From assembly GCA_018302465.1 (NCBI GenBank), contig JAGVZQ010000003.1, positions 1 through 63,980 of the forward strand: a stretch of 63,980 bases of DNA. Reading direction: 5' to 3'. The translations under genes were made by a program, and so were the position numbers. The notes below the pieces were generated by a model. It was not told where the DNA came from. It saw only the letters and a list, made by a program, of their open reading frames with translations, and did no database searches. Of this stretch, positions 2,529-59,514 are shown piece after piece; position 1 is the first letter of the stretch; each line of letters starts with the position of its first letter. Source of the stretch: Candidatus Woesearchaeota archaeon (GTDB lineage: Archaea; Nanobdellota; Nanobdellia; SCGC-AAA011-G17; GW2011-AR20).

Positions 2529-4367
2529 ATGAAAAAATTCTATATCACAACAGCAATTGATTATGTTAATGGTCGCCCGCATATAGGCCATGCATATGAA
2601 AAAATAATAGCAGATGTTTTGGCTAGATGGCATAGGATAAAAGGAGAAGATGTTTTTTTCTTAACAGGAACTGATGATAATGCGCAGAAAAATGCAGAGG
2701 CTGCAAAAGAAGCAAGGAAGCCAATAAAACAGTTTGTAAATGATAACGCTAAAATCTTCCAGGAGTTATGTAAAGTTTTCAACATCTCAAATGATTATTT
2801 CATAAGGACCACAGAAAAAAGACATATTAAATTCTCACAGGAAATATTCAGCAAATCATTCAAAAAAGGAGATATCTACAAGGGCAAATACGAAGGGTAT
2901 TACTGTCTGGGTTGCGAAGCTTTCCTGACAGAAAAAGATTTAGTAGATGAAAAATGTCCAGAGCACAATAAAAAGCCTGAATGGAGAGAAGAAGAGAGTT
3001 ATTTTTTTAAACTAAGTAAATACAAAGATAAAATAATAAGTTTAGTTTCTTCAAAAGATTTCATAATTCCAAAAGATAAAAAAAATGAAATATTAGCAAG
3101 ACTAAAAAGTGAAGAGTTAAAAGATCTGTCAGTTAGCAGGAAAAACACTGAATGGGGTATAATCACACCAATAGACAAAGAGCATTCAATCTATGTATGG
3201 TATGATGCCTTAGGGAATTATGTTTCTGCATTAGACTATCCAAAAGGCAAAAAATTCAAGAAATATTGGCCTGCAGATGTACATGTGATAGGAAAAGGAA
3301 TTAATTGGTTCCATTCTGTGATATGGCCTGCAATATTATTTTCAGCAAATATAACTCAGCCAAAAAGAATTTTAGTGCATGGTTATTTAACAGTCAATGG
3401 AAGTAAAATATCAAAATCTCTTGGAAATAGTATAGATCCAATTGAACTGGCAACAAAATATCCTGCCGATTCTATAAGGTATGTATTATTAAGAGAAGTA
3501 TCTTTAGGCGATGATGGAGACTTCTCAGAAGAAGCATTAACCTCAAGACACAATAATGAGCTGGCAAATGATTTAGGAAACTTAGTCAGCAGGGTATTAA
3601 CTTTAGCAGAAAAAAATTTTTCAAAAGGTCTAAAAAAATCACAAGTAGATAAAAAATTATTCTCAAAATTAAATATTAAAAAAATAGATTCTTTAATGGA
3701 GAACTTTGAAATAAATAATGCATTAAGCGAAGTATGGAAATTCATAAATGAATGCAACAAGCACATAAACCAGGAAAAGCCTTGGGAGATGAAAGGAAAA
3801 GAATTAGAAAAACATATTTATTCTTTATTAGAATCAATAAGAATCCTTTCAATCCTATTAAGTCCTTTTCTTCCGGAAACTTCAAATAAGATATTAAAAC
3901 AATTAAATCAAAAACCCGGAAACTTAAAAGAAGCAAAACCAGGTTTAGTAAAAATTTATAAAGTAAAGAAAGAAGGAATATTATTCAATAAAATAGAGGA
4001 AAAAATGCTTAAACCGGATAAAATAGAAAACAATTTGGATAAGATAGATATAAAAGAATTTAGCAAATTAGACTTAAGGGTAGCAAGAATAAAAGAAGTA
4101 GGAGATCATCCTGATGCAAAAAAACTCTACATTCTAATATTAGATTTAGGGAAAGGGGAGCATGAACTGCAGGTTGTCTCAGGTTTAAAAGAAAATTATA
4201 AAAAAGAAGAACTAATAAATAAAAGAGTCATAGTCATTAGAAATTTAAAACATGCAGTTATCAGGGGCATTGAAAGTCAGGGCATGTTATTAGCCGCAGT
4301 ATTCAAGGATAAAGTCAGTTTAGCCCAGCCAGATAAAGACATAGAAATTGGAGCAAAAGTAATGTAA
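2529..4367 (+). CDS. metG: Methionyl-tRNA synthetase with a C-terminal tRNA-binding (Trbp111/EMAP-like) domain
   Basis: HIGH motif (RPHIGHAY), KMSKS-type motif (KISKSLGN), Zn knuckle CLGCEAF..CPEH, C-terminal DLRVARIKEV..HPDAKKLY. Confidence 0.95.
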   Translation: MKKFYITTAIDYVNGRPHIGHAYEKIIADVLARWHRIKGEDVFFLTGTDDNAQKNAEAAKEARKPIKQFVNDNAKIFQELCKVFNISNDYFIRTTEKRHIKFSQEIFSKSFKKGDIYKGKYEGYYCLGCEAFLTEKDLVDEKCPEHNKKPEWREEESYFFKLSKYKDKIISLVSSKDFIIPKDKKNEILARLKSEELKDLSVSRKNTEWGIITPIDKEHSIYVWYDALGNYVSALDYPKGKKFKKYWPADVHVIGKGINWFHSVIWPAILFSANITQPKRILVHGYLTVNGSKISKSLGNSIDPIELATKYPADSIRYVLLREVSLGDDGDFSEEALTSRHNNELANDLGNLVSRVLTLAEKNFSKGLKKSQVDKKLFSKLNIKKIDSLMENFEINNALSEVWKFINECNKHINQEKPWEMKGKELEKHIYSLLESIRILSILLSPFLPETSNKILKQLNQKPGNLKEAKPGLVKIYKVKKEGILFNKIEEKMLKPDKIENNLDKIDIKEFSKLDLRVARIKEVGDHPDAKKLYILILDLGKGEHELQVVSGLKENYKKEELINKRVIVIRNLKHAVIRGIESQGMLLAAVFKDKVSLAQPDKDIEIGAKVM

Positions 4368-5203: not shown

Positions 5204-5325
5204 TGGGCCTGATCAGATTTGAATTCGTCGATAATTTCTTACCTCTGACGACCCCCACCTTATCAGACTCACCTTCTCTTTATCTAGGAAAATGTGGTGC
5301 TCTAACCAGGCTGAGCCACAGGCCC
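5204..5325 (-). tRNA. tRNA-Ile(GAT) with two non-canonical BHB introns: 30/31 (26 nt, 5268-5293) and 53/54 (21 nt, 5224-5244)
   Basis: Acceptor GGGCCTG/CAGGCCC with A73, D-arm GCTC-AGCCTGGTTA-GAGC, loop CTGATAA. Intron 1 BHB: CACC/GGTG, bulges ACA/AGT, inner helix TTTTC/GAGAA. Intron 2 BHB: CGTC/GACG, bulges AGA/AAT, inner helix GGTAA-GAAA-TTATC. The spliced product is a 75-nt cloverleaf. Confidence 0.8.
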
Positions 5326-6129
5326 ATAGTAAGAATTAATATCAACAACACCTTTTAAAATCTTTCGCCTTTCAATTATATTTGTGTTAGGCGGACAAAA
5401 TCCAAATTTCTTCCATACATCATATTTAGTAAGGTGTTTAGATGAACTAAAACCAATTTTATCCATCCAAATATCCAGATTTTTCCTACCACTAATATCA
5501 ATCTGGTGTTCGAAATTTATCTTTCCATTTCTATAGTTTCTTAAATTATAACATACACAAGAATTTATTTTTAAATTATCTAAAATGAACTTGACAAATA
5601 TAATTAAACTTTTACTCTGACTATTGATCCCTATAGAGGGATAGTAATTCCTTCGTTTGTATCTTTTCTTAAAGCTTATGCAACCATCCGTGTCAGTTAA
5701 ACCTTTCAAAAAAGCCTTCTTAATTCTAAAATTTGAACTTTTTATTAGGCTAGGAACATTCATATCTCTTTTAGAACCAGCAGGAAGGCCTATTACCCGA
5801 TTTAAAAAATAAAAAACAGCTTTTGATCTAAAACTAGTTCTTATTGTTGTTTTATTTCCAGCGTAAACCCATACTTTAATATTAAATAAATCCTTGATTA
5901 AGGGTGCTATGTAATCTTTATGAAATTCTGCTTCGTCAATTTCATGTCCATAGTATTCAACATTGTAATCAATAGTATTACAGGTTTTCCGTTTATACGC
6001 ATTAAGACAACCATCGCCAACATGGACACCAATAAAATAAGCCAATTTTTGAGTCATTTTAGTAGGAATAGTAACTTTTCTGTTAATATCAGATTTATTA
6101 AAATCAATCTTAGGAATATCCAGTTTCAT
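5302..6129 (-). CDS. Free-standing double-motif LAGLIDADG homing endonuclease-like protein
   Basis: LAYFIGVHVGDGCL and FLKGLTDTDGCI motifs. The C-terminal region is homologous to ORF 29480-30169. The last 8 codons (YGPVAQPG*) are read from the tRNA-Ile 5' exon. Confidence 0.85.
   Translation of the reverse strand: MKLDIPKIDFNKSDINRKVTIPTKMTQKLAYFIGVHVGDGCLNAYKRKTCNTIDYNVEYYGHEIDEAEFHKDYIAPLIKDLFNIKVWVYAGNKTTIRTSFRSKAVFYFLNRVIGLPAGSKRDMNVPSLIKSSNFRIKKAFLKGLTDTDGCISFKKRYKRRNYYPSIGINSQSKSLIIFVKFILDNLKINSCVCYNLRNYRNGKINFEHQIDISGRKNLDIWMDKIGFSSSKHLTKYDVWKKFGFCPPNTNIIERRKILKGVVDINSYYGPVAQPG
5353..5360 (-). promoter_or_regulatory. Candidate TATA box (TTTTAAAA) of tRNA-Ile, embedded in the LAGLIDADG coding sequence (codons I-L-K)
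   Basis: 27 nt separate the box from the mature tRNA 5' end. The same octamer sits at the equivalent codons upstream of the tRNA at 30185. Confidence 0.5.
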
Positions 6130-6150
6130 AAAAAATTAACAAAATTAGTA

Positions 6151-6193
6151 TTTATAAGTCTCGCGCGAGAGGTTGTCCGATGGACTAGTGAGT
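6151..6193 (-). promoter_or_regulatory. Conserved promoter module, copy A: 28-nt core (6166-6193), 7-nt spacer, TATA (6151-6158)
   Basis: Minus-strand reading: ACTCACTAGTCCATCGGACAACCTCTCG-N7-CTTATAAA, with 21 nt to the ATG. Near-identical to the copies at 22148 and 29415. Confidence 0.7.
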
Positions 6194-6257
6194 TGAATAT
6201 ATATTTTAAATTATACAAAATGAGATAGACTTTTTTGTTTTAAAATACTATTCATCA

Positions 6258-6869
6258 TTATGCTTCTTTTTCAGGAGTTTCTTCATCCTCTCCAATTTCT
6301 TGATTTATTGAAAGAGAATATATACTATAAGGTATTCTGATGAAGAATTCTAGCAGCACTACAACAAGTAAATAATTAAAAATTTTGCCTAAAAACTGGG
6401 GAACCTCATTGAATCTGGTGATTATATCAGGTACTGATATTGTAGGTGAATTTATCAATAAAACTCCAAGAACAGTAAATGGAATAACTCTTGCAAGATC
6501 CCTTGCTAGCTCTCTGTTAAAATAAGCAACTATCCTTGTAGATGCAACAACAGCCATAGTCAATAATAATATTTGGTTTAAACTTTGCTCTCCGCTTAAA
6601 AATAATACAAATAGAGATAATGCCCCAAACCAGATAAAAGTCAGCAATGGAAATATAACTGCATAAGTATAGATATACAATCCTATTGTAATGCTTTTCT
6701 TAAGCAGAAGATGAGAACCCCAGTAATATTTGCGTAAATCAAGAGCAATTAAATCCCTTTTTGAAAGAGAATTGCAGAGATAAAATATAAATATCCCATA
6801 AAGAACAATTCCTAGTGTATAAAGCAATAATGGATAAACTGTAGCATATCCTCCGAATAAGCTCACCAT
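6258..6869 (-). CDS. Polytopic membrane protein, function unknown
   Basis: About 6 predicted TM segments and an acidic C-terminus. No recognisable motif. Confidence 0.4.
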   Translation of the reverse strand: MVSLFGGYATVYPLLLYTLGIVLYGIFIFYLCNSLSKRDLIALDLRKYYWGSHLLLKKSITIGLYIYTYAVIFPLLTFIWFGALSLFVLFLSGEQSLNQILLLTMAVVASTRIVAYFNRELARDLARVIPFTVLGVLLINSPTISVPDIITRFNEVPQFLGKIFNYLLVVVLLEFFIRIPYSIYSLSINQEIGEDEETPEKEA

Positions 6870-10832: not shown

Positions 10833-10941
10833 CGCGGGGACTGGGATTTGAACCCAGATATCCTAATGGAAACCGGTTTTCACAACCCAATTCGAGATTC
10901 GCCTATAAATCCGGCGCAGTACCGAGTTGTGCCATCCCCGC
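10833..10941 (-). tRNA. Class II tRNA-Ser(CGA) with two introns: 30/31 (13 nt, 10898-10910) and 37/38 (12 nt, 10879-10890)
   Basis: Acceptor GCGGGGA/TCCCCGC with G73, T-arm CTGGG-TTCAAAT-CCCAG, 15-nt variable arm (TCC-ATTA-GGA). After removing the two segments the anticodon arm is CCGGT-CTCGAAA-ACCGG. Intron 1 BHB: CGCC/GGCG with bulges GGA/AAT. Intron 2 has bulges AAT/AAA and a central helix with a U33 mismatch. Confidence 0.65.
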
Positions 10942-20897: not shown

Positions 20898-22130
20898 ATG
20901 CCTGTTAATCCTAAATTCATATCCAAGAATGAGTTAAGGAAAATAATACAGGAGAATTACATAGGTTTTGAAAAAATAACTAAATTAGACAAGCAGGATT
21001 TCTTCGGCTCTTCCCCCCCTACAATATTTATTGGCTCTAAATTGCGCTATCCTCAGGTAAATGTAGGTATTCTAAGCCCGCCAGAAGAAACAGAAAGTGC
21101 ATGGATTCATGATGCTCAGACCTACTGGCCTCAAACAGATTTTACAATAGGAGATATTATAAAATTAAGATCAGCTTTAATCAATTCAAGGTTCACAACA
21201 ACTGTAAAATCTTTTTCTTCAGATAATAAGTTCTTAGACATAGCCCAGGAGATTGGAATTGGTTCTAAACCTGTAGATATAGAAATATCATTAAAAAAGA
21301 AACCAAAATTTTCCACAAGTTTTGATAATATAAGACTACCCATGGGACCAGGAGTTAGGTTAGAAAAGGTAAGAATCACAGAAAATGTTAAAGTAAATCC
21401 AACAGTTGACAAAATAATCTCTGATGTTGATCTAAAAGCAAATGACGCCTCTAATTATTTATTTTCAAAAGGTATAGATGAGCATACAATTTCTCAATTG
21501 CTTACGATTGGAGTTCTAGGATTAAAAAAGAACAGAAAACTAGTTCCAACTAGATTTTCAATAACCGCAACAGATGACAATATAGGGAAAAATATAATAA
21601 AGGAAATAAAAGATTATAATCCAATAGATGATTTCAGAATTTACGAAGGGAATTATTTTGGAAATTATTATTACATTCTGATGTTTCCGGGCGTTTTCAA
21701 TTATGAATTATTTGAAGGTTATATGCCAAGGAGCAGTTGGAATTCTCATTCGGGAGAGATAAAATGGGCAACAGATTCTGAAACTCATTTTGGGAGAAAA
21801 ACCTACGCTTCTAATACTGTTGGAGGTTATTATGCTGCTAGACTTCCAATTTTACATCATTTAAAACAAATGAAAAGACAAGCATTAGTTTTAGTTATAC
21901 GATTTGAAACAGAGGAATATTATGCTGCACTTGGAGTCTGGGTTGTAAGGTCAGCAGCAAGAAAAGCTTTAAGCAACAAAGAAAGAACTTTTGATTCAAA
22001 AGAAAACATGTTAAAGTATCTAAGGGCAGTTATCTATGGAAAGTTTAATTATGATATTGATATTATTCTTAAAAGAAGTGTTATGATGAATAGTATATTA
22101 AAACAAAAAAATCTTTCCCAATTTATATAA
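20898..22130 (+). CDS. nreA: NreA-like archaeal DNA repair protein (DUF650/DUF651)
   Basis: FFGSSPPTIFIGSKLRYPQVNVGILSPP N-terminal pattern and a size of about 410 aa, as recalled for the Nre family. Confidence 0.55.
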   Translation: MPVNPKFISKNELRKIIQENYIGFEKITKLDKQDFFGSSPPTIFIGSKLRYPQVNVGILSPPEETESAWIHDAQTYWPQTDFTIGDIIKLRSALINSRFTTTVKSFSSDNKFLDIAQEIGIGSKPVDIEISLKKKPKFSTSFDNIRLPMGPGVRLEKVRITENVKVNPTVDKIISDVDLKANDASNYLFSKGIDEHTISQLLTIGVLGLKKNRKLVPTRFSITATDDNIGKNIIKEIKDYNPIDDFRIYEGNYFGNYYYILMFPGVFNYELFEGYMPRSSWNSHSGEIKWATDSETHFGRKTYASNTVGGYYAARLPILHHLKQMKRQALVLVIRFETEEYYAALGVWVVRSAARKALSNKERTFDSKENMLKYLRAVIYGKFNYDIDIILKRSVMMNSILKQKNLSQFI

Positions 22131-22147
22131 TATAAAATATATTTTCC

Positions 22148-22190
22148 ACTCACTAGTCCATCGGACAACCCCTCGCACCAACTTTATAAA
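22148..22190 (+). promoter_or_regulatory. Conserved promoter module, copy B: 28-nt core (22148-22175), 7-nt spacer, TATA (22183-22190)
   Basis: ACTCACTAGTCCATCGGACAACCCCTCG-N7-TTTATAAA, with 23 nt to the ATG at 22214. Confidence 0.7.
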
Positions 22191-22213
22191 CGCCAGAATG
22201 TTATAATCAAAAA

Positions 22214-23013
22214 ATGGATTCAAACAAGGCTCTGGTTGTTTTTCAGGGAAAACAGGTAAGAAGAAAATGGTTTAATGATGAATGGTGGTTTTCTGTAGTT
22301 GATATAGTAGGAGCATTAACTCAAACAGATAGAGCCAGAAAATATTGGTCTGATCTAAAAACCAAGCTTCAGGATGAGGGTTTTGAAGTGTCCGAAAAAA
22401 TCGGACAGTTGAAATTAATGGCAGAAGATGGTAAATTAAGGCTCACCGATTGTGCCAACACAAAAAATATGTTTAGGATTATCCAATCTATCCCATCCCC
22501 CAAAGCAGAACCTTTCAAGATGTGGCTGGCACAAGTTGGTTATGACAGAGTAAAAGAAATAGAAAACCCAGAATTAGCCCAAAAAAGAATGAAAGAAATC
22601 TATAAGCAAAAAGGCTATTCTGATGAATGGATAGAAAAGAGAGTAAGAGGCATAGCTATAAGAGATGAGTTAACAGATGAATGGGATAAAAGAGGAGTTA
22701 AAACAGACAAAGAATTCTCAATTTTAACAGCTGAAATTTCAAAAGCAACTTTTTTAATAAAGAAAATCTAAGAGACCACATGAATGATTTAGAATTAATT
22801 TTCACAATGTTAGGGGAAAGAGTGTCTACTGAAATAACAAGAACAGAAGACAAGCAGGGATTTAAGGAGGCAGAGGATGCAGCTAAAAGAGGAGGAAAAA
22901 TCGCAGGTAATGCAAGAAAAGAAACAGAAAAAGAGTTAAGAAAACCAATAACCTCAAAAGAAAATTATCTTGAAGAGCCGGAAATTTATAAGAAAAAAAG
23001 ATTAAGCAAGTGA
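22214..23013 (+). pseudogene. Bro-N / DinD-like (phage antirepressor-type) gene split into two ORFs (22214-22771 and 22780-23013) by a -1 frame change at a T6 run
   Basis: The N-terminal part, VFQGKQVRRKWFNDEWWFSVVDIVGALT, is a Bro-N domain. The second ORF frame reads ..FFNKENLRDHMNDLELIFTMLGE..KRGGKIAGNARKE, the usual C-terminal half of DinD-like proteins. The frames join at T TTT TTA (22750-22756). Confidence 0.7.
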
Positions 23014-29296: not shown

Positions 29297-29383
29297 GGGC
29301 TCGTAACTCAGCTTGGATAGAGTGCTAGCCTTCTAAGCTAGAAGTCGTGGGTTCAAAATTCAATGAAAATCCCATCGGGCCCG
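29297..29383 (+). tRNA. tRNA-Arg(TCT) with a 12-nt BHB mini-intron in the T-loop (59/60; 29358-29369)
   Basis: Acceptor GGGCTCG/CGGGCCC with G73, anticodon arm CTAGC-CTTCTAA-GCTAG. T-arm GTGGG-TTCA-AAA-TTCAA-TGAA-AAT-CCCAT. Splicing after the 2nd bulge nucleotide yields the T-loop TTCAAAT. Confidence 0.85.
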
Positions 29384-29414
29384 CATTTTTATTATTATTT
29401 AATATATATTTTTC

Positions 29415-29457
29415 ACTCACTAGCCCATCGGACAATCTCTCGGGTGAGGTTTATATA
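29415..29457 (+). promoter_or_regulatory. Conserved promoter module, copy C: 28-nt core (29415-29442), 7-nt spacer, TATA (29450-29457)
   Basis: ACTCACTAGCCCATCGGACAATCTCTCG-N7-TTTATATA, with 22 nt to the GTG at 29480. Confidence 0.7.
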
Positions 29458-29479
29458 TTGAAGGTTAAAGAATACTATT

Positions 29480-30169
29480 GTGAGAAAGACAAATATCTAT
29501 GAATTCATTGGAGTGATAATTGGAGACGGTTCCCTCCTGTATAACCCAAAGAGGAGAGTTTACAGACTTGAAATAGCGGGAAATGCCACAGAAGATTATC
29601 CTTATTTTTTAAAGTTAAAACAGTTTATGGTGAAAAGTATGGGATATACACCAAAAATAAGATTCAGGACACACAAAAAAGGAAGAAGCATTTGCTTATA
29701 TTTGGATAATAAAAAGTTTTTAGAGTTTATGAAGAGTCTAGACTTACCATTTGGGAAAAAAACTTTTACAATAACTATCCCTAGTAATTTTCTTAACTGG
29801 AAATATTCAAAACACATAATAAGGGGAATCTTTGAAAGTGATGGTTCACTTTACTTTTCAAAAAGTAAGATAACTACAAATAAACCAACCTATCCCCGAA
29901 TAGAGATAAAAACTTCAAGTGAAAAACTAGTGTATCAAATAAAAAGTATCTTAAGTGAGAATGGTTTTAGTGTACAAACTATAGCTCCAAAAAGAGATAA
30001 AGCTACTAAGATTTACATTTCAGGGGAAAGAATGTTGAATAAGTGGATTGATGAGATCGGATTTAGCAGTAGAAAAAATTTGACCAAATATCTGTATTGG
30101 GATAAATTAGGATACTACACACCTCGTTCTACACTAAGGCAAAGAGAAACCCTTTTAAAATCTCCTTAG
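29480..30169 (+). CDS. Free-standing double-motif LAGLIDADG homing endonuclease-like protein (GTG start)
   Basis: YEFIGVIIGDGSL and IIRGIFESDGSL motifs. C-terminal ISGERMLNKWIDEIGFSSRKNLTKY is homologous to 5302-6129. Confidence 0.85.
   Translation: MRKTNIYEFIGVIIGDGSLLYNPKRRVYRLEIAGNATEDYPYFLKLKQFMVKSMGYTPKIRFRTHKKGRSICLYLDNKKFLEFMKSLDLPFGKKTFTITIPSNFLNWKYSKHIIRGIFESDGSLYFSKSKITTNKPTYPRIEIKTSSEKLVYQIKSILSENGFSVQTIAPKRDKATKIYISGERMLNKWIDEIGFSSRKNLTKYLYWDKLGYYTPRSTLRQRETLLKSP
30153..30160 (+). promoter_or_regulatory. Candidate TATA box (TTTTAAAA) of the downstream tRNA, embedded in the last codons (L-L-K) of the LAGLIDADG gene
   Basis: 24 nt separate the box from the tRNA 5' end at 30185. 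Confidence 0.5.
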
Positions 30170-30184
30170 TTAATTTCATATAAG

Positions 30185-30322
30185 GGGCACATCGCCAAGA
30201 TGAGTTATTCATGGCAACGGTTAAGGCAGTCGATATTCCAAAAGAATAGCTGAACCTGCAGACCATTTGGCCGAGAGCGACTATCGCAGGTTCGAAATTT
30301 AACGAAAATCCTGCTGTGCCCT
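30185..30322 (+). tRNA. tRNA-Cys(GCA)-like gene with four predicted introns: D-loop (30200-30217), 30/31 (30233-30254), 37/38 (30262-30275), 59/60 (30297-30308)
   Basis: Acceptor GGGCACA/TGTGCCC with U73. Three introns have clean BHBs (GCCA/TGGC, CAGT/GCTG, TTCG/CGAA, each with 3-nt bulges and inner hairpins). The 37/38 intron has bulges AGA/AGA and a central helix with a U33 mismatch. The spliced 72-nt product folds as GCCA-AGCGGTTA-AGGC, GTCGC-CTGCAGA-GCGAC, GCAGG-TTCGAAT-CCTGC. Confidence 0.6.
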
Positions 30323-56490: not shown

Positions 56491-59400
56491 ATGGCAATTG
56501 TAGATTCCTATAGTTTCTATTCAGGAAACATACCGGTAAAAATAGCTATAGAAAGCGATAGAAACGAATTTGTTCTAATCTACAAAGTTTCAATTTCTCA
56601 AATAAGTGCAAATACAGATATAGTTCTGGATAAAATAAGGGAAGAGCTGATAGAAAAGGTAAAGCTGGGGATTGGAGACATTACAGATCCCAAAAAATTA
56701 GATTTTGTTAAGGAGAAATTTAAAAAAACAATTATTAACCTGATAAAAAAATACTTCCCAGATATCTCAGATGAAACTTTAGATTTTTTTACAACCTATT
56801 TAATGCACAAAAGCTTTGGTCTTGGAAAAGTAGAAATATTAATGAAAGACAAGGATCTTGAAGAGATAGTAATAAACAATGCAGAAGAGCCTATATGGGT
56901 ATATCACCATAAATACGGCTGGTTAAAAACAAATGTTCTGTTAAAAGATGAAGGATTGGTAAAGCACTATTCAAGTTTAATCGGAAGGAAGGTTGGAAGA
57001 AGTATTACTTTGTTAACCCCATTATTGGATGCAACATTGGAAACAGGAGACAGAGTAAATGCAACACTAAACCCAATTTCATCAAAAGGAAACACAATAA
57101 CAATAAGAAAGTTTTCTTCAGACCCAATAACAATTACAAAATTCATACAGAACCAGGTAATGAGCTACTCAACAGCAGCTTTAATCTGGTTAGGTGTTGA
57201 ATATGAATCCTCAGTTTTGATAAGCGGAGGGACGGCTTCGGGAAAAACGAGTGTCCTAAACGCAGTAGGAGAATTCTTCCCTCCAAATCAAAGAATTATC
57301 TCAGTTGAAGACAGTGTTTCAGGGGATTCTGAAATTGTTTACAAAGATAAAGGAGTAATAAAAAAATCAACAATAGGAAACTTAATTGACAGTCAAATAA
57401 AAATTGAAAAGATAGTTTTGCATGATGGTACGGAAATTGCAGAAAACAAAGATGTAGAAATTTTGAGCATGGATAATTATGGAAAAATTTCTTTAGCTAA
57501 ACCCAGTTCTTTTATAAGGCATAAGGTAAAAAAACCACTTATTGAGATAAGATTGTCAAGTGGTAGAAAAATAACTGTTACCAAAGATCATTCTTTATTT
57601 AGTCTAGTTGATAATAAAATTAAGGAAGTAAGCGGTTCTGAAATTAAGGAAGGAACTTTTTTAGCCACTCCTAGAAAAATAGAGTATGAAGGAAGTTTTA
57701 AAATTATAGACCTAAGCATCCATCTCGATAAATTTGAAGATTGCATGGTTTCAGGAAATGTCATAAAGAGATTAATACAGGAACATGGACTTGATTTAGT
57801 TAGAAACAAAAGTAACAGACAATATTATAGAAGAGAAGGAATAGTCCCTGTTGCAGTTTTTAAGAAATTATTGTCTTATATTAAAGAAGAAGACAAGAAA
57901 TCCCTGAGTATAGTTACAAAGAGAAGCCATAAAGAGGGGAGGACCCAATTGCCTTTGTTGATTAATATCGATAATAACTTTGCAACTATAGTGGGTATGT
58001 GGCTTGCAGATGGATGTTATGATATTAGGTCTGTATTGATTAGTGATCCAGCAAAGGAGTCTTGGGAAATTTTACATAAATTTGCAAATATTTTTGGTGC
58101 TAGAGTAAGGCCACATAGTGATAAGGTAACTGCTGTAATAAACTCAAAGATAATAAAGGTTTTATTTAAGGATATCTTGGAATTAAAAGGAAATGCCTAC
58201 ACCAAAAGAATCCCTATATGGGCATTTAACTTAAACAAAGAACTTTCATCTTCATTGCTTAAAGGATACTTCAGCGGGGATGGTACTGTTAAAAAAAATG
58301 AAATATGTGTAAACAGCGCTTCCAGGGGATTATTAAATGATGTTCAGACCCTATTGCTGAGATTTGAAATCCTTTTAAGGGTTAGTTGGAAGCTAAATAA
58401 AGACAAAACTTATGAATCTAGAATCGGTTGCTCTAAATTTTTAAAGAAATTCAAAATAGATATAGGTTTTGTTCAGAATTATAAAAATGTAAAACTAAAC
58501 AAAATATGCGACAGAAAACCTAGTGATTCCAGCGACATTATTCCCTTAGCTAAGAATACATATTTAAAATTAAAACATATCCTTGGAAAAGGTTTCAAAG
58601 AAAATATGCCATACACATCTTGGAAATCCTGGCATGGAAATTATAAAAATTCACATATTGGGAGAAGTTACTTTTCATTATTAATGAAAACTCTTGATAT
58701 CTCTTCAATTTCTTTTGTGGATTCGGAAATAAAAAATATCGTAAGTTTAAGCAAAAATGATATTTTCTGGGATAAAGTAATAGGAATTAAAGAAATAGAT
58801 TTTGAAGGATATGTTTATGACTTAAGCGTCCCAGAAAGAGAAAATTTTATTTGTAATAATATAATCGCCCATAACACTAGAGAAATAACTTTGCCTAAAT
58901 ATCTCCACTGGGTTCCTATGATTACAAGATTACCAAACATAGAAGGAAAAGGTGGGGTTTCTATGCTTGACTTAATAATTAATTCATTAAGAATGAGACC
59001 TGATAGAATAATGGTAGGAGAGATAAGAAGAAAGGAAGAAGCAGAAACATTATTTGAAGCCATGCATACAGGTCACTCAGTTTATGCTACATTGCATGCA
59101 AATAGTGCAGAAGAAACAGTTAACAGGTTGACAAATCCCCCCATTAATGTTCCTAGAACTCTCCTTCCTGCAATAGGAATGGTATTAGTTATGTACAGAA
59201 ACAGAAGAACAGGAATCAGAAGAATTTTCCAGATAGCAGAGATAACAAATGAATCTAATCCAAACGTGCTTTTGCAGTATGATATCTCTCAGGATAAAAT
59301 TTTAACAGCAAATGAATCTGTGAAATTTATGCCTGACCTTGAGATTCAGACAGGTATGTCAAAGAATGAAATAAACTTGGATCTGACAAATAAAATAAAC

Positions 59401-59514
59401 ATCTTAAAATGGATGGTAAAAAAGAATATCACAGATCTTGATGAAATTGGCAGAGTTATTGCAACTTATTACACAAATAAAGAGGGCTTATTAAAGTTCA
59501 TAAGTAAAAATTAA
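56491..59514 (+). CDS. FlaI/PilB/VirB11-class type IV pilus or archaellum assembly ATPase, interrupted by an intein
   Basis: Walker A ISGGTASGKTS. RIISVED|intein|TREITLP. MVGEIRRKEEAETLFEAMHTGH. The extein is about 486 aa. Confidence 0.9.
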   Translation: MAIVDSYSFYSGNIPVKIAIESDRNEFVLIYKVSISQISANTDIVLDKIREELIEKVKLGIGDITDPKKLDFVKEKFKKTIINLIKKYFPDISDETLDFFTTYLMHKSFGLGKVEILMKDKDLEEIVINNAEEPIWVYHHKYGWLKTNVLLKDEGLVKHYSSLIGRKVGRSITLLTPLLDATLETGDRVNATLNPISSKGNTITIRKFSSDPITITKFIQNQVMSYSTAALIWLGVEYESSVLISGGTASGKTSVLNAVGEFFPPNQRIISVEDSVSGDSEIVYKDKGVIKKSTIGNLIDSQIKIEKIVLHDGTEIAENKDVEILSMDNYGKISLAKPSSFIRHKVKKPLIEIRLSSGRKITVTKDHSLFSLVDNKIKEVSGSEIKEGTFLATPRKIEYEGSFKIIDLSIHLDKFEDCMVSGNVIKRLIQEHGLDLVRNKSNRQYYRREGIVPVAVFKKLLSYIKEEDKKSLSIVTKRSHKEGRTQLPLLINIDNNFATIVGMWLADGCYDIRSVLISDPAKESWEILHKFANIFGARVRPHSDKVTAVINSKIIKVLFKDILELKGNAYTKRIPIWAFNLNKELSSSLLKGYFSGDGTVKKNEICVNSASRGLLNDVQTLLLRFEILLRVSWKLNKDKTYESRIGCSKFLKKFKIDIGFVQNYKNVKLNKICDRKPSDSSDIIPLAKNTYLKLKHILGKGFKENMPYTSWKSWHGNYKNSHIGRSYFSLLMKTLDISSISFVDSEIKNIVSLSKNDIFWDKVIGIKEIDFEGYVYDLSVPERENFICNNIIAHNTREITLPKYLHWVPMITRLPNIEGKGGVSMLDLIINSLRMRPDRIMVGEIRRKEEAETLFEAMHTGHSVYATLHANSAEETVNRLTNPPINVPRTLLPAIGMVLVMYRNRRTGIRRIFQIAEITNESNPNVLLQYDISQDKILTANESVKFMPDLEIQTGMSKNEINLDLTNKINILKWMVKKNITDLDEIGRVIATYYTNKEGLLKFISKN
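57313..58875 (+). mobile_element. 521-aa intein (Ser1 ... His-Asn / Thr+1) with an embedded LAGLIDADG homing endonuclease domain
   Basis: Block A SVSGDSEIV, block B VTKDH, LAGLIDADG motifs IVGMWLADGCYD and LLKGYFSGDGTV, block G VYDLSVPERENFICNNIIAHN|T. Removing it restores the ED-TRE motif of the ATPase. Confidence 0.85.

Follow-up and report, generated by a model that had tools for sequence, protein, structure and literature searches.

In this stretch of 63,980 nucleotides from a Candidatus Woesearchaeota archaeon (contig JAGVZQ010000003.1; G+C = 31%; the whole stretch is called the window below), an open reading frame (ORF) at 29480–30169 lies between the genes for tRNA-Arg(UCU) and tRNA-Cys(GCA). 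An earlier note, made from the sequence alone, had described this ORF as a LAGLIDADG cassette wedged between the two tRNA genes, and the observation was confirmed. As judged by its sequence and predicted fold, the ORF is an intact two-motif LAGLIDADG endonuclease gene; the clades of its protein family track the isotype of the partner tRNA, and related genomes carry other genes at the same site. We consider it fairly probable that these ORFs are free-standing homing-endonuclease genes that reside on the flanks of tRNA genes and are entangled with the strictly placed tRNA promoters. The features of the Arg–Cys site and of a second, paralogous site at tRNA-Ile(GAU) are as follows.

29297–29383, + strand: tRNA-Arg(UCU), left flank of the cassette site (custom scanner and anticodon call)
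~29358–29369, + strand: 12-nt insert in the T-loop of tRNA-Arg(UCU), folding into a 4-bp helix with a 3-nt bulge
29398–29458, + strand: promoter module of ~62 nt (upstream A/T run, core CACTCACTAGCCCATCGGACAATCTCTCG, TATA box TTTATATA)
29450–29457, + strand: TATA box TTTATATA of the ORF, starting 30 nt ahead of the GTG start codon
29480–30169, + strand: gene for a two-motif monomeric LAGLIDADG endonuclease of 229 aa, predicted from Pfam and the modelled fold
30153–30160, + strand: octamer TTTTAAAA within the L-L-K codons of the ORF; likely TATA box of tRNA-Cys
30185–30322, + strand: tRNA-Cys(GCA) with discriminator U73 and four introns (scanner and comparison with relatives)
5204–5325, − strand: tRNA-Ile(GAU) with two introns (scanner; anticodon loop CTGATAA read by inspection)
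5302–6129, − strand: paralogous LAGLIDADG gene of 275 aa (Pfam and BLASTP)
5353–5360, − strand: octamer TTTTAAAA in the I-L-K codons of the 275-aa ORF, starting at −35 from the first base (+1) of tRNA-Ile

The ORF and its family on tRNA-gene flanks

The ORF starts with GTG, encodes 229 aa and ends with a TAG stop codon at 30167–30169, and its product matched Pfam LAGLIDADG_3 (PF14528) with 31.7 bits (cut-off 22.5). The AlphaFold2 model of the protein (predicted local distance difference test, pLDDT, 92.2; predicted template modelling score, pTM, 0.90) exhibited the monomeric double-domain, pseudo-dimeric alpha-beta-beta-alpha-beta-beta-alpha fold of LAGLIDADG enzymes, with a Foldseek probability of 1.0 to I-Tsp061I, I-DmoI, I-AniI and I-SceI; intein endonuclease domains and the bI3 maturase were also among its closest structural matches. 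Each of the two LAGLIDADG motifs ends in a conserved acidic residue. G15-D16-G17 and D121-G122 were invariant in family alignment A2, and D16 and D121 were kept in 80/82 and 78/82 family sequences, respectively. A conserved extra helical tail (IGFS..K..TKY..W.K.GYY.P....R...L) follows at the C-terminus.

A sequence search revealed 85 homologues with 41–63% identity, all of ~230 aa and all from Nanoarchaeota or Woesearchaeota metagenomes, and an exhaustive profile search yielded 347 clusters (50% identity) at E ≤ 1e-30. Frameshifts or stop codons were present in 8/80 family copies. NCBIfam held no dedicated model for the family and matched only the endonuclease domains of intein-containing proteins. 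Viral carriers were rejected, the best viral relatives being just 21–30% identical. The ORF is not part of a group I intron, as no Rfam rRNA or group I intron match occurred in the window (published archaeal group I introns are all within rRNA genes), nor of a bulge-helix-bulge (BHB) intron of the I-DmoI type, since its flanks are two complete, separately folding tRNAs. It is thus free-standing, between complete tRNA-Arg and tRNA-Cys genes and behind its own TATA box.

As the earlier note had proposed, the ORF is homologous to the one at 5302–6129 (BLASTP E = 9e-21, 29% identity over 240 aa); the ISGERMLNKWIDEIGFSS/ISGRKNLDIWMDKIGFSS stretch forms part of this alignment, in which the L-K codons that yield TTTTAAAA are also aligned between the 229-aa and 275-aa ORFs. 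At the Cys locus, 24 nt separate TTTTAAAA from the tRNA +1 at 30185, and the gap from the stop codon to the tRNA is 15 nt, both exactly as described. At the Ile locus, the octamer lies 27 nt, not 24, ahead of the tRNA +1 at 5325, and the 275-aa ORF extends 24 nt into tRNA-Ile. The window holds a further LAGLIDADG domain, of the LAGLIDADG_3 type, in an intein that interrupts a T2SSE/FlaI-type ATPase gene (56491–59514); close kinship of the ORF with this intein-borne domain was rejected in the absence of significant BLASTP similarity.

The arrangement seen at the two loci of the window recurs in other genomes. Among 80 loci (L001–L080) from GTDB genomes of DPANN archaea, a tRNA began or ended within 140 nt of the ORF 3′ end in 62/80, often overlapping the ORF, and in most of the loci the distance from the ORF 3′ end to a tRNA end was 0–60 nt. 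A second tRNA lay within 400 nt upstream of the ORF in 31/80 loci, whereas the background density away from the ORF was about one tRNA per 12 kb in the same loci. When the family proteins were divided into clades by a neighbour-joining tree, the clades tracked the partner tRNA isotype; automatic anticodon calls failed for many multi-intron tRNAs, and isotypes other than Cys were assigned from anticodon-loop motifs and inspection.

Cys(GCA) clade: matching partner tRNA in about 32 of 33 loci
Arg(CCU) clade: matching partner tRNA in 5 of 5 loci
Thr(GGU) clade: matching partner tRNA in 7 of 7 loci
Ile(UAU) clade: matching partner tRNA in 9 of 9 loci
Leu(UAA) clade: matching partner tRNA in 7 of 7 loci

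A further clade was located downstream of tRNA-Leu(UAA), often upstream of tRNA-Thr(GGU). The order tRNA-Arg(UCU)–ORF–tRNA-Cys was repeated across the Cys clade, and identical clade–isotype pairs (the Arg-CCU and Thr-GGU pairings) occurred in genomes labelled Woesearchaeota and in genomes labelled Micrarchaeota. Both tRNA orientations were found among the partner tRNAs. In the Ile(UAU), Thr(GGU) and Leu(UAA) clades the tRNA was often convergent, its 3′ end facing the ORF 3′ end; the link is therefore one of position and not of shared promoter direction.

Cassette turnover and the probable promoters of the two sites

Relatives from the same groundwater system were compared with the window at both sites. 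At the Arg–Cys site, four different occupants were found.

Window: the 229-aa LAGLIDADG gene
L097: a 283-aa LAGLIDADG gene without BLASTP similarity to the 229-aa gene; flanks 89–99% identical
L108, L118 and L096: a 324-aa helix-turn-helix (HTH)–LAGLIDADG gene; flanks 72–86% identical
L159: an unrelated 112-aa ORF; the ASCH neighbour is 88% identical to that of the window

Homology to the window stopped at 29458, just past the TATA box of the module, in L097 and L108, and at 29403, the start of the module, in L159. Because one site holds four occupants, the 229-aa gene is probably a replaceable, and probably mobile, cassette, which agrees with the cassette character that had been ascribed to it. 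All 23 contigs having an identical ASCH neighbour carried the 229-aa gene, so the polymorphism separates close species and does not occur inside the sampled strain; the ASCH homologues P0248, P0246 and P0239, which are more distant, lacked synteny.

The Ile site lacked the 275-aa LAGLIDADG gene in L170 and L135. In L135, positions 3600–3760 (corresponding to window 6171–6270 onward) matched the window with 100% identity as far as the middle of the module, beyond which a different Bro-N gene followed; this junction may reflect either recombination or assembly. Sequence divergence varied among pairs of loci: the endonuclease was more similar than alanyl-tRNA synthetase (AlaRS) in L008/L013 (86% versus 73% identity) and less similar in other pairs (48–51% versus 58–60%), and the alignment of L003 with L029 was limited to the block of endonuclease and tRNA. 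This patchy presence, replacement and decay among relatives is easier to reconcile with a gene that is selfish and replaceable than with a fixed host gene. Two other features were noted in the relatives. The tRNA-Ile flank of L170 (3170–5444) carries Cas4-like, Bro-N and PRiA4_ORF3-type genes in place of the LAGLIDADG gene and looks like an integrated mobile element, and L173 contains a local duplication of the cytochrome b5 (cyt-b5)/DoxX region.

To place the octamer TTTTAAAA, 144 tRNAs from the window and L001–L080 were aligned on their first base and scanned for TTTAWAWA (at least 7 of 8 positions). TATA-like octamers formed a sharp peak at starts −34 to −32, compared with 1–3% at most other offsets, and the peak was common to endonuclease-adjacent tRNAs and all others. 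The two octamers of the window start at −32 (tRNA-Cys) and −35 (tRNA-Ile), and the peak bears out the proposal that the last codons of the ORF hold an octamer at the position of a tRNA promoter; TTTTAAAA is thus likely to be the TATA box of tRNA-Cys. Within the window, 1.0% of all strand positions bore a TATA-like octamer, and the chance of finding one within a 6-nt promoter window at both loci was ~0.4%. In Nanoarchaeum equitans, promoters 26–27 nt upstream yield leaderless tRNAs (PMC10100707), and by analogy the fixed distance in these 144 tRNAs suggests leaderless tRNA transcription. Among 48 co-oriented partner tRNAs, the TATA box lay inside the ORF in 24 and at or after its stop codon in 4. 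The unrelated 283-aa gene of L097 likewise ends with a TATA box at −33, in L-K-I-Y codons.

The earlier note had raised the possibility that the TATA-containing segment is part of the mobile unit. Comparison with the relatives that lost the genes did not support this, as the segment stays with the tRNA in both L159 and L170. The Arg–Cys site of L159 contains neither the module nor a LAGLIDADG gene, yet the last ~45 nt of the ORF, with its E-T-L-L-K-S codons, its TAG stop codon and TTTTAAAA, remain immediately upstream of tRNA-Cys. In L170, the 275-aa gene is gone, but window 5326–5400 (the last ~75 nt of the ORF) is kept beside an unchanged tRNA-Ile, and the octamer region is retained with one substitution.

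The ORFs' own TATA boxes start 29–31 nt before the start codon, and their mRNAs are therefore probably leaderless. The TATA box of the 229-aa ORF closes the promoter module, which is present in two further copies in the window.

6150–6212, − strand: second copy, ahead of the 275-aa LAGLIDADG gene; the L135 junction falls inside it
22128–22191, + strand: third copy (matched stretch 22148–22175), ahead of a frameshifted Bro-N gene at 22214–23013

The copies at the two LAGLIDADG loci matched at 28/28 and 27/28 positions (0 expected by chance). The Bro-N gene behind the third copy is split by the frameshift into 22214–22771 and 22780–23013, and intact versions of 278–287 aa are present in related contigs. 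An exact-pattern metagenome scan recovered the module, in 22 distinct contexts, from 44 contigs (L081–L124; the Ga0209541/Ga0209542/Ga0208375 and C687J series), every one of them from related groundwater samples. None of the 80 GTDB loci contained the 11-mer core of the module, nor did IMG/VR. The conserved part, ~62 nt and at least 90% identical, ends exactly at the TATA box; the start codon follows ~43–119 nt, mostly ~61 nt, after the core. Genes of at least 12 unrelated families follow the module; LAGLIDADG families (221–439 aa) account for at least 9 of these, the others being Bro-N, an RNase_H_2-superfamily protein and a 50-aa ORF. A tRNA adjoins only some of the module-led genes, and many have none nearby. 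The conserved promoter module that the earlier note had described is thus real but is specific neither to LAGLIDADG genes nor to tRNAs. Judged by its sequence context, it is probably a promoter or operator that selfish-looking genes of this lineage have in common, and it may act as a recombination arm or as a portable promoter. Reading it as a C/D-box small RNA or a tRNA fragment was rejected, since inspection by eye revealed no D box and no consistent pairing. The ~60 nt upstream of the third copy resemble 6213–6270 and there overlap the last codons of an Nre-family gene (20898–22130).

Competing explanations and known systems

If these ORFs are free-standing homing-endonuclease genes of tRNA flanks, the cassette would belong to a large family of DPANN archaea in which each clade is tied to one isotype (here Cys, and Ile for the paralogue), and it would bring or use the local promoter module for its expression. 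The tRNA-Cys promoter would have come to lie inside the last codons because the ORF abuts the tRNA and the TATA box is fixed at about −33, and the last 45–75 nt would survive loss or exchange of the cassette because this entanglement protects the ORF 3′ end. Spread and turnover would proceed by double-strand-break repair or recombination, with homology arms supplied by the conserved tRNA genes and, in this lineage, also by the shared module, on the model of the 'intronless homing' of the seg/mob genes of phage T4. DNA cleavage, a target site, homing and the transcription start sites are points that we infer. Several results weigh against this explanation. The Cys clade looks largely vertical, with the Arg(UCU)–ORF–Cys order and partial synteny kept, and between the window and L001 the endonuclease is about as similar as AlaRS (62 versus 61%), which would also fit a host function. 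No recognisable TATA box was present at −38 to −29 in 20/48 co-oriented partner tRNAs; the promoter is thus not embedded in every case, and some of these tRNAs may be co-transcribed. Neither a target site nor a true empty target allele was found among the relatives compared, and the gene-less alleles are losses or replacements, not naive targets, because they retain remnants. The same sites also take cargo other than endonucleases (Bro-N, the 112-aa ORF) and are perhaps just permissive hot spots.

This last point leads to a different explanation, in which tRNA flanks are permissive hot spots or hypervariable islands for any selfish or accessory cassette, like the attachment (att) sites of integrases, and LAGLIDADG genes, in which the genome is rich, are common cargo whose products do not recognise the locus. 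The Bro-N genes, the 112-aa ORF and the Cas4-like/PRiA4-type element that relatives carry at the two sites speak for it, as does the sharing of the module by at least 9 LAGLIDADG families, with no tRNA near most copies; the L135 junction within the module suggests plain homologous recombination. We nevertheless regard it as unlikely, since the match of clade and isotype, which for Arg-CCU and Thr-GGU recurs in Woesearchaeota as well as Micrarchaeota genomes, and the ORF–tRNA spacing of 0–60 nt in most loci have a precision that is not expected from passive accumulation. WhiA is a domesticated LAGLIDADG regulator, and on this model the protein might be a host factor, for example a locus-specific DNA-binding protein that controls or insulates tRNA transcription. 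The 45–63% identity of the Cys clade across an order with the Arg–ORF–Cys order and partial synteny kept, its AlaRS-like divergence and the overlap of the ORF with the tRNA promoter would fit such a role, whereas the retention of both catalytic Asp residues, the pseudogenes among the family copies (8/80) and the exchange of the gene for non-orthologous LAGLIDADG genes, or its loss, in close relatives that keep an identical tRNA-Cys would not. A WhiA-like regulator was specifically rejected, since the LAGLIDADG_WhiA match (22.2 bits) is below the cut-off of 23.2 and there is no HTH domain, and we hold domestication to be quite improbable. Very improbable, in our view, is a maturase-like RNA helper that folds or processes the adjacent interrupted pre-tRNA: although the bI3 maturase and the bifunctional I-AniI are among the closest structural matches and the partner tRNAs in the window contain four and two introns, adjacent tRNAs exhibited no intron enrichment (8/33 partner tRNA-Cys genes are intron-free), L170 retains both tRNA-Ile introns without the gene, and BHB-type introns are cut by the splicing endonuclease and need no maturase.

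Free-standing homing endonucleases are familiar from phages, and LAGLIDADG enzymes from introns and inteins. The phage systems comprise SegF/SegG and MobE of phage T4 and F-CphI of a cyanophage, with intronless or trans (collaborative) homing (PMC2790892, PMC2988022, PMC6083498, PMC10448857). The tRNA-flank ORFs resemble them in having their own promoter and a position between conserved genes, in their presence, absence and replacement among relatives at the boundaries of exchanged segments, and in a movement that is presumed, by analogy, to proceed via break repair on conserved flanks. They differ in that the enzyme, here predicted from sequence, is of the LAGLIDADG and not the GIY-YIG, HNH or Endo VII type, in their location on the chromosome of a cellular archaeon with tRNA partners of clade–isotype specificity, and in that the ORF carries the promoter of a neighbouring gene. 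I-DmoI, I-Tsp061I, PI-PfuI and the TliVMA intein share the monomeric two-motif fold and are the closest matches in sequence and structure; unlike these, the tRNA-flank ORF resides in neither an intron nor an intein, is preceded by a TATA box of its own and encodes the extra C-terminal helical tail.

As in Nanoarchaeum equitans (PMC10100707), a TATA-like box stands at a fixed distance from most tRNAs, ending ~25 nt before the tRNA +1; in contrast to that archaeon, the box is often within a protein-coding gene, and 20/48 partner tRNAs have none. Integrases of the SSV and pNOB8 types target tRNA genes, and Randau and Soll proposed tRNA introns as a protection (PMC3293823, PMC4090602). Such elements likewise use conserved tRNA genes as landing sites, with interrupted tRNAs beside mobile DNA, but the cassette has no integrase and no att-type duplications, and it lies against the tRNA gene without recombining inside it.

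Literature searches on LAGLIDADG or homing endonucleases together with tRNA, DPANN, Woesearchaeota or Nanoarchaeota yielded no pertinent report, though their coverage was incomplete and a prior description is possible. Within that scope, no earlier report was found of a large cellular family with each clade tied to one tRNA gene, or of an endonuclease ORF that bears the promoter of an essential neighbouring tRNA. A selfish gene of this kind would be hard to delete because a host regulatory sequence lies inside it, and remnants were present at two independent loci. Going by their sequences, the family enzymes would be new meganuclease scaffolds, possibly with tRNA-gene targets.

Detection and introns of the tRNA genes

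Because ARAGORN and Rfam missed interrupted tRNAs, we wrote a custom intron-tolerant scanner, for which a tRNA must have a G+C-rich 7-bp acceptor stem, U8 and a T-arm but may contain inserts. It detected six tRNAs in the window and 0 matches in shuffled sequence, where an earlier version had given ~20 false matches per shuffle. In the window, ARAGORN reported tRNA-Asn only (1/6) and missed both tRNA-Arg and tRNA-Cys, while Rfam reported 4/6, with tRNA-Arg only partial and tRNA-Cys missed; Rfam scans at the gathering threshold passed over most interrupted tRNAs. The tRNAs at 1801–1886, 5204–5325, 10834–10941, 29297–29383 and 30185–30322 were hard for the standard tools. The majority of tRNA genes in these genomes are interrupted, and more than 80% of those detected in these loci exceed 78 nt, suggesting that DPANN genomes call for intron-aware tRNA annotation.

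The earlier note had counted four introns in tRNA-Cys and two in tRNA-Ile; both the counts and the coordinates proved right.

30200–30217, + strand: D-loop intron of tRNA-Cys, 18 nt; absent from L097 and L159, with a homologous intron in L001
30233–30254, + strand: tRNA-Cys intron at 30/31, 22 nt; an intron at 30/31 occurs in most Cys-clade loci
30262–30275, + strand: canonical 37/38 intron of tRNA-Cys, 14 nt
30297–30308, + strand: T-loop (59/60) mini-intron of tRNA-Cys, 12 nt; UUCG/CGAA 4-bp helix with an AAU bulge
tRNA-Ile(GAU), − strand: introns at 30/31 (26 nt) and 53/54 (21 nt), by inspection

A suggested association between an adjacent LAGLIDADG gene and the number of tRNA introns did not hold. 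The median pre-tRNA length was 112 nt for endonuclease-adjacent tRNAs and 105–110 nt for the others (Mann–Whitney p = 0.2–0.66), and 8/33 partner tRNA-Cys genes were free of introns; the association is therefore in general unsupported. At least 10 loci with the 229-aa family lacked the 30/31 intron, and 8 of these had no intron at all.

Among close relatives, the window and L001, which have the 229-aa gene, contain homologous introns at three tRNA-Cys positions, whereas in L097, L108 and L159, which do not, these three introns are missing despite identical exons. For collaborative homing, in which a neighbouring intron interrupts the target of the endonuclease, these intron patterns speak partly for and partly against. 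Alignment A4 of the L097 and L159 genes revealed exons 100% identical to those of the window and a precise absence of the 18-, 22- and 14-nt inserts; the 12-nt T-loop insert is common to the window, L097, L108 and L159. One idea is that tRNA-flank endonucleases cause the tRNA gene beside them to gain, lose or keep its BHB introns, perhaps through break-induced gene conversion or the cutting of intron-less alleles, and that the embedded promoter then serves as an addiction device, keeping the host from deleting the cassette cleanly. We think it doubtful and unlikely to hold; L170, which retains both tRNA-Ile introns though its LAGLIDADG gene is missing, counts against a causal link between endonuclease and introns. 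Reviews of archaeal tRNA introns mention neither LAGLIDADG proteins nor homing and describe the way in which introns transpose as unknown (PMC4090602, PMC3293823); the link, if true, would for the first time provide a concrete mechanism, at the DNA level, by which these introns undergo 'transposition' and turnover. The natural allele sets found here, with identical tRNA-Cys exons, one or four introns and four neighbours, make such turnover testable.

Other differences in introns were observed among these loci. Near-identical 12-nt T-loop (59/60) mini-introns are present in tRNA-Arg (29358–29369) and tRNA-Cys (30297–30308) of the window, and the tRNA-Arg of the sister species L096/L118 lacks this mini-intron. 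In L159 (2290–2450), tRNA-Arg(UCU) apparently contains several more inserts than the window copy, and tRNA-Cys fewer; among close relatives, the intron load thus appears to shift from one neighbouring tRNA to the other. A 9-nt tandem duplication, GAATAGCTG, in the 30/31 intron of tRNA-Cys (window 30240–30254) is polymorphic, and the contigs L126, L128, L131, L132, L133 and L090 are identical over 1 kb save for this duplication.

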